Positions 26,301-30,400 are shown, counted from the stretch's first letter. The stretch is DNA of 64,000 bases from a virus (IMGVR_UViG_3300033463_000025:1-64000); one strand, 5' to 3'. Numbers and translations: made by a program. Notes: a model not told the origin generated them from the sequence alone.

Positions 26301-27736
26301 CAACTGATTCACAAGGCAATCAAATTAAACTGTTCTCAGCCGATGCACCATCTTTCACTATGGCTATTGATTATCAGTTTACAAATGACGCAAACGATTA
26401 CGCTCCCTCAAATAATAAAACACTGATTTCGTGTTTTGAAAATCCCGATAACGGGAACGACGGTTTTGCATTGAGGTACTATTCCAACAAAGCAAACGTC
26501 CTTTGGGGCGATAAGAACCAAAACGTTACCACAGAGCAGAATCGTGATATGCTCGTTCTCCGTCATGTACAAGGAAGCGATGAGTTATACATCTACGCTT
26601 TTAATGGTGGAGATATTAGCTCTGGTTATTATTCAAATACCAAACTTGCGACTTCTAAAACTCGCACAGCATATAATAGTACAAATGCTCCGCTTGTCTT
26701 TGGCGGCATAGCAGAATATGATTCTGAAAATCAAGTATATATTGCAAGCGATAGCTCTACATATATCGGAGCAGGTATAATCTATTGGTGCAAGATTTGG
26801 TATGCTGATTTGGGTGATACCGTTGCAAAAGAGCTTGCTTCTTGGACTCGTGACGATGACAGACAAGAATATTATCAAGCTCAGTTAGACTCTGCTGGTA
26901 CTTTATTTGGCAGTCCTTATCTACTTTCTGGTACTTCAACGAGAGCATCAGCTTCGTTCATTTCAAATAACCTTATGAGATATTTGCATCAAATGAATGT
27001 TGATAACGTCAACGCTGGCGGTTGGGGTGGTAATACTTCAACCGAAGCTAAGTATCAAGCATCTATGCACTATTTCATGCAATACAAGTTCTATCCCGCT
27101 ATTCCAAACGAGATAAGAAACTTAATTGTACAGGTGAAAGTACCATCAACTACTGGTAGTCAATCTTCAAACATTGGCAACTACGATAGTTATGTCTACA
27201 TCCCCTGCTATAGAGAAATGGCAGATAATAATGATACTAAGAACGCTCCTTATTCTAATGAGGGTAGCTTCATAAGTTGGAACACTACAAATCAACGTAG
27301 GCTTGGTTTTAGAGATATTATCACATTAGATACATCTCTTTTGGCTAACGGTAATGCAAAGTTTACTGGTTCAAGCGAACCAATCTTCGCTCAGAATAAA
27401 GGCTTCTACGATGCCGACAGTAATCCTAATGGCGTTCGTGAATACGATATTTGGCACATAGATAATAACAATGTGGCAAGAATATATCTGTCCGCACAAA
27501 CGCTCAGGAAGAAGAACATCACACCTACTGTGGCGATTACACAGGGTACGGAGCTTCTCGGCGGCTGGTGCGGCGCGTATACCTATTTCCTGCGCTCCCC
27601 GAATACTGGCAACGCCAACAATTTTTGGTATGTGAACCTCATTGGTGCTACCAACAACTACTCCAACGCGAACTACTGGATTGGCGTTCGCCCGTGCTTC
27701 TCAATTTTTGCTCAAATTTCTCAAAACGAAAATTAA
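20369..27736 (+). CDS. Giant tail/adhesin protein; DGR target with a C-terminal C-type-lectin-like variable domain
   Basis: 2455 aa; Ig/ConA-like regions, CotH-like block, LRRs; C-terminal YFLRSP...GVRPCF encoded by the VR. Confidence 0.85.
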   Translation: MIIGQIAYAASPSAEDFRIFNSESALTTYLGTPAAKAGQGVKVLDSTSGKYKAYIIQGTAGHFTTSPMGAGDFIGSQLPSVAEGDEDLIYYIYNSEDDIYQQYRFNGTRYILVGSNNKKAYVGSSLPGVGDTDIDYYIGTAQDGFIHYRYFADEINDYIAVGGDSYTKAEVDALLNAQVIYYYYLSYGTAIVEENGEQIEKNNVVRLWRYTNPDDVGDTSGELGTVVTWFELQGGGSGSSQATNMTFNRVTSENIAMSAGDVETNGIVILASFADYETGGEPVAATYSIKVGNTVVETGTAIQCKDASGNQLYDEDENPIYNVFDVTDYCPIGKESTVAISITDEYGNMIIRRWYVKIVDISISSKFDDSYSRPVGSAINFPYKPEGLGTKTIHFVLDGVEIGTASTNNTAETTYSIPSTYATYGSHFFDCYVTTVVGGSTITSNHIYKDIVCYSQDGSLPVIGCIYRNDMYGTVQLNEYDTLNIPYTVYDPSTNNPTVTLSVDGTTVDTSSLTSHSNIWAFKGSEVGSHTLTIACGSTSVTIVVNVIDLGYDISPVTTGLAFDFDPTGITNSSTNRLWHDTNDNTVALSVSANFDWDNGGYQIDSETGESYFLVKAGTRATISYNLFGTNPKYDGAEFKLVFKTGNVRDAEATFLSCVSDNIGLKMDVHSATIANSVNIADPLWIPYSEEDIIEFEYNISPSINGLSYNPLIMTYEDGVPFKPLEYTSGTFNTLTGEWNGGAQLHQDTPVPITIGSDDCDVYIYRMKAYTVSLSDSQILDNFIADARNSETMVNRYVRNQVYDRNSELTPESVAEACPNLRVITISAPYFTNDKDEKVPDTIIEYIYKNGDPVLENWKAINCKHSGQGTTSNDYGFAGRNMLLYLNDDNTVITLGDDTTTVSKVALTFGNHINIDPSSYPTTADYTEAVQQALNTNATSIPNNVFNIKVNIASSENANNALLAKRYNDYLPYKMPAQKRDSRVKNTMEFVNCVVFIKETDNDLTRHREFQDKEWHFYALGNIGDAKKTDKTRVNDKNDPKEFVIEIKDNGKPNSGFNTGTGTYPISASQWVAGNSAYDSLYNNWDSSFEFRYTKADYDPKNNITSPQAELNKQKWRDFYEWVITVSDADFPTELGDWFIVDSALYYYVFTHRYTMIDNRAKNSFWHWSKVYITEAEAAEMGETEASYYTIDNAKAAINEGYRFEMWGYDFDTALGINNSGVMSEQYRYGKEDSDYRSDGDSTSGYLFNEATSVFWCRLRDLMPTEIANMYQTVATNKSSAWDAEHLINEFDNWQAQFPEEIWRLNYEREYTRTYQSGVDRFMTQMMQGRKKYHRRQWERDQAPYFGTKYGLIYYKNTDRISFRCNQPIFEVDSSRIFGNQSTANTYLASASAAVDQNVKIKQQDNTYKLYVIKSVNGSLTYIPIVEPNYDLTIKPYSDLYLSAEFGNDGETTEVVAIRAKAGQSYTIECPAGRNMTNTMVKIYCGSHIQELSDLSPCYIEDNDVSMARKLRKLIIGNSTLGYRSYITTLKLGNNPILEELNIENCNTFTNPSIDLTNCGNLVKFYANGSNITQVSFANYGKVADVEMPANINTISMRNLNYLEDANFDMPSYSSMRSATIVNGILDTKTFMGNISPYLTYLYLTGFDWTFLNVDFTNPQDFLIEKLYAINSVTLIGTIRIDRIPYRYVQKYHEKWGDDFVIDATLVVPEYSITFLNDDKTPISSIDNNTPYVEWVDGESAAYNPITEGYVNTPTKASSAKYDYTFSHWAIFVNNTAGAEYTFGRVLSSNITLIAVYTSSLRTFTVNWYTSPVNTNITSGKWNSKNNSANKTLLHTETNVQYGAEVSFDITQKVNCKNVTSGNVTYLESYVFSSWSDSTGGITGDTDVYAVWDYAKIFKNNGELILEDTLGNRKALNNMTSAEIAAVCANGEATTFFHDKDYFDYIMGHDYSFANVDEEVLVPLGEELHLDGVTPIIPTDSQGNQIKLFSADAPSFTMAIDYQFTNDANDYAPSNNKTLISCFENPDNGNDGFALRYYSNKANVLWGDKNQNVTTEQNRDMLVLRHVQGSDELYIYAFNGGDISSGYYSNTKLATSKTRTAYNSTNAPLVFGGIAEYDSENQVYIASDSSTYIGAGIIYWCKIWYADLGDTVAKELASWTRDDDRQEYYQAQLDSAGTLFGSPYLLSGTSTRASASFISNNLMRYLHQMNVDNVNAGGWGGNTSTEAKYQASMHYFMQYKFYPAIPNEIRNLIVQVKVPSTTGSQSSNIGNYDSYVYIPCYREMADNNDTKNAPYSNEGSFISWNTTNQRRLGFRDIITLDTSLLANGNAKFTGSSEPIFAQNKGFYDADSNPNGVREYDIWHIDNNNVARIYLSAQTLRKKNITPTVAITQGTELLGGWCGAYTYFLRSPNTGNANNFWYVNLIGATNNYSNANYWIGVRPCFSIFAQISQNEN
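27569..27703 (+). repeat. DGR variable repeat (VR)
   Basis: Aligns to TR 28657-28788; every substitution lies opposite a TR adenine; one extra codon. Confidence 0.95.
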
Positions 27737-27747
27737 GTTATAATTCA

Positions 27748-27797
27748 AAAGTCCTACAAATCTGGCGATAACTCGCTTATCGCCTTTGTAGGGCTTT
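27748..27797 (+). promoter_or_regulatory. Hairpin/cruciform downstream of the VR (DGR homing element and/or terminator)
   Basis: AAAGTCCTACAAA..GGCGATAA-CTCGC-TTATCGCC-TTTGTAGGGCTTT. Confidence 0.7.
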
Positions 27798-28788: not shown

Positions 28789-29071
28789 TTTTCAAGTAGC
28801 TATGTATTAAGAGTGAAGAGTAATAAAAAATTGAGAAGGAGATTTTAACCATCTATTTGTAAAAATAGTAAATAATATGTTTTCGTGGTTTAACGGAAAC
28901 TCGCTGTGGTGGCGATTCGTAACGGTCGAGTGGAACGCTTCTTGCATAGACAAGCCTTTGCCTAACTTGTTTTTATACTCAACCATAATAGCCAGAACAG
29001 GCAAAATATAATAAGGCTAAACGAAGGAAAAACCAAAATTATAAGAATCTAAAAAGAAAGGAGGTTGTCTT

Positions 29072-30400
29072 TTGAATCAAAAAGAAAGAATCAGAAAACG
29101 CATCGAACGCGATAAAGCGCGGCGAGCTTTAAAGAAAAAGGCTTATGCGGAAGAAACAAAAGCTGATGATTACGATAAAGTGTTGACTATGCAAAACTAT
29201 TATCGGTCATTAAGAAAGTGTCGTAAAGGCGTTATGTGGAAAGGAAAGCCGCAAAAGTATTGCCAAACTTCGATGACACAAATTTCAAAAACCTTTGAGT
29301 TTATTGGTGAATATAAACTACCACCTTTAGAAAACACGTCCAATATTCTTTTATATGAACGTGGCAAGGAAAGAACTATTACGCCTATACAATTCAGCGA
29401 TAGGATAACTCAACGTGTAATTTGTGATGATTCCATGATTCCGTTAATCATGCCGTCATTAATTTATGATAATGGTGCAAGCACTGAAGGTAAGGGAACG
29501 GATTTTGCTCGTAGAAGAGCCGAAAAATTTATGAGAGATGCTATTAAGGATTATGGAGAAAATTTCTATATTCTTACATTCGACTTTAAAAGTTTCTTTG
29601 ATAGTATTCCACATTCCACTTGTTACAATGTATTAAATCAATATTATTCAGATGCAAGGCTCGTAAATTTAATATTGGAAATTGTTAAGTCTTACCAACG
29701 ACCTAACATATTAAAAATATCAGATGATTCAGAAAGAGAACTTCAATTAAATTTACTTGAAAATAATAAACAAAAAGGAATATGTCTTGGTAGCCAAATA
29801 TCTCAAATCCTTGCTTTGGTTGTACCTAACAAATTAGACCATTACATTAAAGATAAACAACGTATGAAAAGATATGTTAGATATATGGATGATGGCATAA
29901 TAATACACCCAGATAAGGAAGTGCTACATAAGCTCTACGAAGGTATGAAACAAGTATGCAATACATTAGGATTAACCTTTAATGAAAAGAAAACTAAAAT
30001 AGTCAAAGCGACTAAGGGTTTTTCTTTCTTAAAGATTAAATATCATGTTGTTGGTAAACGTCTTATAAAGGCTTTAGTTCGTAGCGGAATAGTTAGAATG
30101 AGAAGAAAGTTAAAAAAGTTCAAAAGAAAAGTTGATATGGGGCTAATGAGTTTGGACGACGTTTACAATTCTATTCAATCTTGGATAGCACATTCTAAGT
30201 TGGCAAAATCATATCACACAGTAAAAAGTATGCTAAAACTATACGACGAGTTGTTTGGCGGCTATAAGATAACCAAGAGATACTTTAAAAAGTTAAGAAA
30301 GGAAGGAAGACTCCATGAAATATTACAAAGTGATAAATGGGCAGAATTTCGTTGGGATTGCAACAACTTCCGAACTACGCAAAATACAGTTGCGGCATAA
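29072..30400 (+). CDS. DGR reverse transcriptase
   Basis: RBS AAAGGAGG with TTG start; ERGKER, DFKSFFDSI, GICLGSQISQ (DGR-type SQ) and YVRYMDD. Confidence 0.95.
   Translation: MNQKERIRKRIERDKARRALKKKAYAEETKADDYDKVLTMQNYYRSLRKCRKGVMWKGKPQKYCQTSMTQISKTFEFIGEYKLPPLENTSNILLYERGKERTITPIQFSDRITQRVICDDSMIPLIMPSLIYDNGASTEGKGTDFARRRAEKFMRDAIKDYGENFYILTFDFKSFFDSIPHSTCYNVLNQYYSDARLVNLILEIVKSYQRPNILKISDDSERELQLNLLENNKQKGICLGSQISQILALVVPNKLDHYIKDKQRMKRYVRYMDDGIIIHPDKEVLHKLYEGMKQVCNTLGLTFNEKKTKIVKATKGFSFLKIKYHVVGKRLIKALVRSGIVRMRRKLKKFKRKVDMGLMSLDDVYNSIQSWIAHSKLAKSYHTVKSMLKLYDELFGGYKITKRYFKKLRKEGRLHEILQSDKWAEFRWDCNNFRTTQNTVAA

Follow-up and report, generated by a model that had tools for sequence, protein, structure and literature searches.

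The locus described here raises the question of whether a long repeat pair and the reverse transcriptase (RT) gene beside it make up a complete and working diversity-generating retroelement (DGR), and how closely such an element follows that of Bordetella phage BPP-1. It lies at positions 27569 to 30400 of IMGVR_UViG_3300033463_000025:1-64000, a 64,000-nucleotide stretch (hereafter, the window) with a GC content of about 36%, which makes up the opening 64 kb of an IMG/VR virus record of 143,758 bp that has direct terminal repeats and is rated complete. A preliminary description had proposed a complete, apparently intact DGR in the order target variable repeat (VR), hairpin, avd, template repeat (TR), spacer and RT. 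We recovered this order at the coordinates given below, with all features on the plus strand, and found most of the defining parts present with their open reading frames (ORFs) open. In BPP-1 (mtd-avd-TR-brt), target with VR, accessory gene, TR, spacer and RT follow one another in the same way, and there too the repeat closes with a GC-rich 14-mer. Present and unbroken were a DGR-type RT, a TR/VR pair with adenine-specific differences, an end resembling the initiation of mutagenic homing (IMH) element, an Avd fold, a structured spacer RNA and a DUF6273 domain. The window very probably contains the complete DGR of a temperate 144-kb tailed phage. The element is of a known kind and has two variant features, a fused double Avd and a spacer RNA that is probably of the Rfam RT-2 class.

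Differences between the variable and template repeats

The VR (27569-27707) and the intergenic TR (28657-28795) form one long direct repeat, as defined by alignment and an exhaustive gap scan; 27569-27661 corresponds to 28657-28749, and the sequence beyond, to 27707 and 28795, is offset by 3 nt. The VR consists of a diversified part (27569-27682), a GC-rich 14-mer (27683-27696) and an IMH-like tail (27697-27707). In the TR the 14-mer occupies 28768-28781, followed by a spacer-pairing, IMH*-like tail (28782-28792). The GC-rich element, GGCGTTCGCCCGTG, contains no adenine and is identical in the two repeats, and the 11-nt tail behind it has two differences, as in an IMH/IMH* pair.

With the most economical gap, 10 substitutions separate the VR from the TR as far as the last base of the 14-mer, and 10/10 lie at TR adenines (7 to T, 2 to C and 1 to G). 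The 125 aligned nt, which are the 114 nt of diversified sequence and the 14-mer minus the extra codon described below, include 38 adenines and no mismatch at any other base (hypergeometric P = 2.7e-6). The preliminary description had counted 11-13 substitutions depending on gap placement, all opposite TR adenines, and this range agrees with ours: an 11th substitution, A-to-C, lies directly 3' of the 14-mer (TR 28782, VR 27697), and alternative codon-wise gap placements give 12-13. The first difference at a base other than adenine is TR 28789 T against VR 27704 A, and homology stops at 27707. These data support the interpretation, also put forward earlier, of adenine-specific mutagenic retrohoming as in BPP-1.

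The adenine counts reported previously were exact. Ahead of the GC-rich element the TR contains 38 adenines, and 17 AAY codons account for 34 of these; mutation cannot turn any TR codon into a stop. Theoretical diversity is 4^38 = 7.6e22 DNA variants, or about 2.5e22 peptide variants. A second VR was not found in the genome.

The VR is 3 nt, or one codon, longer than the TR, and the extra codon lies in an AAC run near 27659-27664. TR/VR indels occur in 7% of DGRs, 74% of these indels are at AAC, and they have been attributed to template slippage; the in-frame, one-codon difference beside AAC repeats here fits these indels in the collection of Wu et al. 2018 (PMC5758913). Such codon indels are a known by-product of active DGRs (PMC5758913). 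Length changes are also seen in relatives, with VRs one codon shorter than the TRs in L013 and L018 and the longer form again in P0027. A contraction of the TR was considered as the source of the extra codon and is less likely, because all related TRs keep the same four AAC codons and the longer form occurs only in VRs (the window and P0027).

Directly after the GC-rich element, TR 28780-28782 reads TGA in the VR frame where the VR (27695-27697) has a conserved Cys codon. The same TGA/Cys pair is present in L003, L004, L005, L007, L011-L014 and L018, with Cys encoded by TGC, or by TGT in L004. The A/C difference at 28782/27697, which is near the predicted start of cDNA synthesis, may be either a constant distinction between IMH and IMH* or the first adenine to be mutagenised, with selection acting on it.

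In three relatives, 13/13, 13/13 and 18/20 of the VR/TR mismatches were at TR adenines. Comparison of the window TR with the TRs of L003, L005 and L007 gives 13, 11 and 15 non-adenine differences, respectively, and at every one of these positions each VR matches its own TR. VRs that follow their own TRs at non-adenine positions indicate that TR-to-VR transfer continued after the lineages split. An ordinary duplication or chance repeat, unconnected with any retroelement template, would explain that a repeat exists and nothing further, and is left with next to no probability: it is refuted by 10/10 mismatches on 38 adenines among 125 positions, by the same pattern in three relatives and by the concerted evolution of VR and TR, and a DGR-type RT and an Avd adjoining the repeat pair also speak against it.

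The two non-adenine differences in L005, which has the same cassette as L016, are adjacent (2592-2593 versus 3660-3661; TC in the TR, CT in the VR) and stand among 18 adenine-specific ones. They reflect either non-canonical mutagenesis or drift.

The reverse transcriptase and the diversified target

The RT gene (29072-30400) encodes 442 aa from a TTG start that follows a GGAGG ribosome-binding site. The protein matches RVT_1 (E 5.9e-18) and the phage-RT family phrog_1423 (E 3.5e-67), and its best solved relative is the BPP-1 enzyme, bRT (8ub7_A, E 2.9e-13). Both motifs named in the preliminary description, YMDD and SQ, were found and align with those of bRT (GSQISQ/GSLTSQ and YMDD/YMDD, here within VRYMDDG, in a common GSxxSQ plus YMDD pattern), as do the fingertips D-R residues. 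On this sequence evidence the enzyme is of the DGR type. It is longer than that of BPP-1 (442 aa versus 328 aa).

The target gene (20369-27736) is the last of the tail module and encodes 2455 aa, with the VR in frame and ending 29 nt before the stop codon. The VR is carried by a C-terminal domain that matches DUF6273 (PF19789) at residues 2378-2446 (E 4.8e-11; 43.2 bits against a cut-off of 23.5). The variable-domain profile had no sequence match in the PDB. In nine homologous C-termini, invariant VR residues come from adenine-free TR codons and variable residues from AAY codons. DUF6273 domains in other gut-phage DGR targets are C-lectin-like on AlphaFold2 (AF2) models (Baykov et al. 2023, PMC10743442), and the Pfam match together with this literature supports a C-lectin-like variable domain at the target C-terminus.

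The closest described targets are those of gut Firmicutes phage DGRs (nd4/nd12 tgt2, tentaclins; PMC10743442), which likewise have the VR in a DUF6273 domain modelled as a C-lectin, AAY-rich templates and phages of gut-type Bacillota. Their targets differ in being small single-domain proteins or proteins with an N-terminal VR followed by Ig domains (313-650 aa), whereas here the VR ends a protein of 2455 aa; a double Avd is not described there. BPP-1 differs in its target as well, which is Mtd.

Receptor specificity is usually shifted in this way, by diversification of an adhesin tip. The target would be the adhesin that sets host range, and the largest tail protein of the phage would have at its tip an in-principle repertoire of about 1e22 peptides.

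A tandem of two Avd-like bundles

Between the hairpin and the TR lies a gene (27826-28626) for a basic protein of 266 aa. The preliminary description had called it avd. The Avd fold and the position were borne out; the protein is nevertheless not an ordinary Avd of about 128 aa but appears to be a fused tandem double, and it is missed by profile libraries. Two Avd-like four-helix bundles are predicted, at residues ~14-123 and 140-262. The two halves are homologous to each other (BLASTP E 2e-7; hhalign probability 98.6%, E 8e-16, over 119 columns). An AF2 model built with a 17-sequence alignment (pLDDT 89.5, pTM 0.87) shows two four-helix bundles, and the fold analysis used this model, not a single-sequence one (pLDDT 47).

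When the C-terminal half of the model was compared with 48,161 chains by VIA-align, the top four were 2gsc (Z 15.7), 2rld (14.9), 4dwl (13.0) and 8ub7_B (12.9). Of these, 4dwl is the BPP-1 Avd, 8ub7_B is Avd in the DGR ribonucleoprotein (RNP), and 2gsc and 2rld are members of the Avd family. The matches span the whole C-terminal domain, at a root-mean-square deviation of 1.8-2.4 A for 2gsc, 2rld and 4dwl and 5.2 A for 8ub7_B. Foldseek against the PDB placed 2gsc and 2rld in its top rows with probability 1.00; none of its matches reached E <= 0.001. The N-terminal bundle is probably Avd-like as well, to judge from its homology to the C-terminal half. The protein thus has the feature by which Avd is recognised, a basic four-helix bundle adjoining the TR, here duplicated in tandem.

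The assignment depends on predicted structure and internal homology, and the sequence searches tell against it. The 266-aa protein had no match in Pfam, NCBIfam or PHROG, none of 17 family members matched PF05635 at E <= 1 or any other Pfam family, and a family profile searched against PDB sequences returned no Avd, only noise such as translin and butyrophilin; by the sequence profiles PF05635 and TIGR02436 the protein falls outside the Avd / 23S rRNA-IVS family. Four-helix bundles also score high structurally with many unrelated proteins. It could be argued that the gene between VR and TR encodes some unrelated helical phage protein and that the DGR has no Avd. We regard this as highly improbable, since the Avd family takes precisely the first four places among 48,161 chains, with matches over the whole C-terminal domain, and since Foldseek gives probability 1.00 for 2gsc and 2rld. 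The gene also lies between VR and TR in 13/13 distinct loci, its product has a pI of 9.6 where the average Avd has 9.5 (PMC5758913), and a single-domain relative, P0172, has a weak, sub-threshold PF05635 match (E 2.7e-4).

An exhaustive HMMER search placed 429 representative clusters in the family, 91 of them at E <= 1e-30. Nearly all members have 260-285 aa and align end to end, and a gene of 265-276 aa is at the same place in all relatives' cassettes. A few relatives are of half length (112-137 aa) and correspond either to the C-terminal half (P0114, P0124, P0129, P0137, P0142 and P0161) or to the N-terminal half (P0134, P0135, P0145 and P0149). Either the protein is split over two genes in these cases, or the contigs are truncated.

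The literature on DGRs and Avd mentions no tandem or fused form. The locus shares the avd-TR-RT core of class B1 of Wu et al. 2018 (PMC5758913), here with the target upstream, but the Avds in that study were of similar length and one DGR had two separate avd genes, with no fused tandem Avd described.

The BPP-1 Avd is a homopentamer of 128-aa chains. A chain of two bundles implies a different assembly, and a ring of five bundles as in BPP-1 cannot be built from whole double chains in the same way. The case is evenly balanced that DGRs with a tandem Avd and an RT-2 RNA form a distinct and widespread class (429 representative clusters) in phages of rumen or gut Firmicutes-type hosts, with an RT-Avd-RNA particle arranged unlike bRT-Avd5. 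If so, the two Avd halves may have split RT-binding and RNA-binding roles, and annotation based on Avd profiles would score tandem-Avd DGRs as lacking Avd. Fused double Avds that are invisible to Pfam, NCBIfam and PHROGs are relevant to the share of DGRs that has been reported as "Avd-less" and to the way the Avd oligomer engages the RT.

The spacer RNA and its pairings with the template

The spacer between TR and RT lies where the preliminary description had it but is more than a plain spacer. By its sequence it is probably an Rfam RT-2-type RNA, and its 5' part is predicted to pair with both ends of the template. The structured RNA (28854-29049) is a divergent match to RF03077, with a score of 35.9 bits (E 6e-6) that is below the Rfam gathering score of 40. 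Matches at the same place score 30-38 bits in L003, L004, L005 and L007, and 63-67 bits, above the gathering score, in a sister clade that has the same tandem Avd (L009, L011 and L014).

As described by Weinberg et al. 2017 (PMC5737381), RT-2 lies directly upstream of an RT gene, and its conserved core (the GGACGCUUCUUGCAU region and the surrounding helices) is matched here. The difference is that here it lies between TR and RT in every relative, with the window copy below the gathering threshold. In that study RT-10 was the one motif linked to a DGR, a DGR role for other RT motifs being a matter of speculation; the spacer RNA of BPP-1 is RT-10. Our data allow RT-2 to be assigned as the spacer RNA of the tandem-Avd DGRs.

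Upstream of the RT-2 match is a 25-nt spacer strand (28827-28851) with two pairing segments that are contiguous, with no gap. Its first part (28827-28839) is predicted to pair with the TR 3' end at 28778-28792, in what we call duplex B, which resembles a template:primer duplex. The second part (28840-28851) would form 12 bp with a segment just upstream of the TR (28640-28651), in duplex A, a "cPRT Stop" analogue. Both duplexes emerged from RNAalifold run on five relatives, and their pairs were then counted explicitly. Across these five, 96.7% of cells in duplex A were paired and 4 pairs had changes on both sides. For the 24 pairs of both duplexes together, 95.8% of cells were paired versus 42-64% in slid controls, and 6 pairs had both-sided changes versus 0-2 in the controls. 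In the distant relatives L018 and L011/L014 the same duplex layout was seen with different sequences, a qualitative check of layout only, as unconstrained duplexfold was noisy.

These pairings support a two-duplex DGR RNA arranged like the template:primer and "cPRT Stop" duplexes of the BPP-1 RNP (PDB 8ub7; bioRxiv 10.1101/2023.10.23.563531), where the spacer strand likewise pairs with the TR 3' end and then with a segment upstream of the TR. Recurrence of the layout, with covariation, in a DGR so distant from BPP-1 is evidence that it is general, and the layout predicts where priming would occur in this element. Promoter-like hexamers were also present upstream of the TR (28627-28656); they were no commoner than in shuffled sequences and were not used as evidence.

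In the window only, the short 3-bp part of duplex B contains a G.G mismatch (28779/28838); the corresponding pair in relatives is C-G. VR 27694 carries the same lineage-specific G as TR 28779, whereas TR 28789 is not matched by the VR, and this agrees with a cDNA start at about TR 28781-28783.

From these features we propose the following mechanism. The RT and the tandem-Avd protein would bind an RNA that spans the accessory gene's 3' end, TR and spacer. The 25-nt spacer strand would pair with the TR 3' end and, adjoining it, with the segment upstream of the TR, the template being looped out between the two duplexes. The cDNA would then be primed in cis beside the TR:spacer duplex; it would start at about TR 28781-28783 and run 5'-wards through the 38 adenines, opposite which any nucleotide could be inserted, to stop just 3' of 28651 at the upstream duplex; by analogy with BPP-1, these are the predicted start and stop sites. 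The cDNA would replace the VR at the end of the adhesin gene, guided by the common GC-rich 14-mer and perhaps also by the conserved hairpin. Each round of retrohoming would re-randomise 21 codons (17 of them AAY) of the C-lectin-like (DUF6273) binding surface, with occasional gain or loss of an AAC codon.

Probable present-day activity of the element

Intactness, the concerted evolution of TR and VR, and a comparison within the sister clade together suggest that the element is active in this genome today. In that clade, L011 and L012 have identical TRs, accessory genes that are 99.6% identical and flanks that are about 2% diverged. Their VRs differ at 17 positions, and 17/17 are at TR adenines.

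Several results weigh against a complete and currently working DGR. The sole other assembly of this genome (143,772 bp) encodes an identical target protein, and exact-pattern scans of viral and metagenome collections, with N at the adenines, found no near-identical strain. Given the one-codon length difference, the VR as it now stands is no straightforward copy of the current TR. Only the window carries the G.G mismatch in duplex B, and its RT-2 match is below threshold. Two features of known DGRs were not recovered: recognition of the accessory protein by an Avd sequence profile, and a BPP-1-type cruciform after the VR.

The element could on these grounds be a recently inactivated relic, with parts that look intact, a frozen VR and no homing. 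We consider this unlikely. There are no non-adenine differences over the 125 aligned nt, the ORFs are open, the catalytic motifs of the RT are intact and both RNA duplexes are retained. The G shared by TR 28779 and VR 27694 is expected if the TR still overwrites the VR, and the length mismatch belongs to the codon indels in AAC runs that active DGRs produce and that recur in L013 and L018.

In L010, a further locus, the VR (2216-2341) is 1 nt longer than the TR (3336-3460), and the repeat spacing changes from 1120 to 1119. This is due either to a frameshift at the target tip or to an assembly artefact of mixed VR variants.

The hairpin after the variable repeat

A hairpin (27748-27797) begins 12 nt after the target stop codon. 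Its inner stem (27764-27771/27777-27784) carries a CTCGC loop (27772-27776) and is closed by an outer stem, and the predicted structure is stable (dG -19.4 kcal/mol, z -4.6). In L003, L004 and L005 the hairpin is kept, with compensatory stem changes and a near-invariant CTCGC/CTTGC loop, amid diverged intergenic DNA.

A hairpin after the VR is found in BPP-1 as well, where both the stem structure and the loop sequence matter; BPP-1-type elements have a GC-rich stem of 7-10 bp and a 4-nt GRNA loop, 4-34 bp after the VR (PMC3240598). The hairpin here departs from this rule, with an inner stem of 8 bp that is half GC, a 5-nt CTCGC loop, and a distance from the VR end of 40 nt to the outer stem and 56 nt to the inner stem. 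The preliminary description was correct that a hairpin is present at this place, and it is conserved; it is unlike the BPP-1 type, and a terminator function for the target gene is equally conceivable.

That it is merely the intrinsic terminator of that gene, with no part in retrohoming, is quite possible, if short of probable. The position 12 nt past the stop codon, the T-rich stretch behind the hairpin, a terminator-like call by a simple scan at 27782-27794, and a loop and distance outside the BPP-1-type rule all fit a terminator. A loop that is near-invariant while the stem covaries is, however, the pattern important in BPP-1 and is unexpected for a plain terminator. In addition, the T run after the hairpin is poor (TTTATTAAT), and the accessory gene and RT, encoded behind the hairpin on the same strand, have to be transcribed, though a separate promoter may serve them. 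The hairpin is a candidate target-recognition cruciform, terminator, or both.

Host, relatives and neighbouring genes

The layout of the cassette is conserved in 3 viral, 10 metagenome and 3 genome loci. One of these is a prophage in the cultured Ruminococcus sp. YE282 (L016), whose genome has the whole cassette with a tandem Avd that is 73% identical; more distant tandem-Avd copies are found in Tyzzerella and Gastranaerophilales metagenome-assembled genomes. Among GenBank phages, blastn found no match to the 3.4-kb cassette. The host of this uncultured 144-kb phage is probably a rumen Ruminococcus-type bacterium, a low-GC Firmicute-type host that differs from that of BPP-1. Thousands of DGRs are known in gut and rumen phages, and the presence of a DGR as such adds little for the field; a cultured host with a relative of this one makes experiments possible.

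Upstream of the DGR, the tail module includes genes for a tape measure, a tail fibre and an endolysin. The tape measure is present as two ORFs (305-2260 and 3892-8304) that match phrog_4211 in consecutive profile ranges. Between them is an ORF of 344 aa (2811-3845) with matches to a D5-like regulator and an HNH endonuclease, and this ORF, which splits the tape measure, may be an insertion of the homing-endonuclease type.

On the other side, a tyrosine integrase gene lies just 3' of the DGR cassette. An ORF of 249 aa (30315-31064) overlaps the final 86 nt of the RT gene, an overlap that is kept in relatives. It has weak PHROG matches to tail-fibre and tail-fibre-assembly proteins and an acidic, PEPD-rich linker, and its product may act as chaperone to the diversified adhesin, or as its partner. 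Directly after the DGR is a gene for a 141-aa membrane protein (31051-31476) that matches PF06541 (putative ABC-transporter type IV, CmpB) and phrog_20274.

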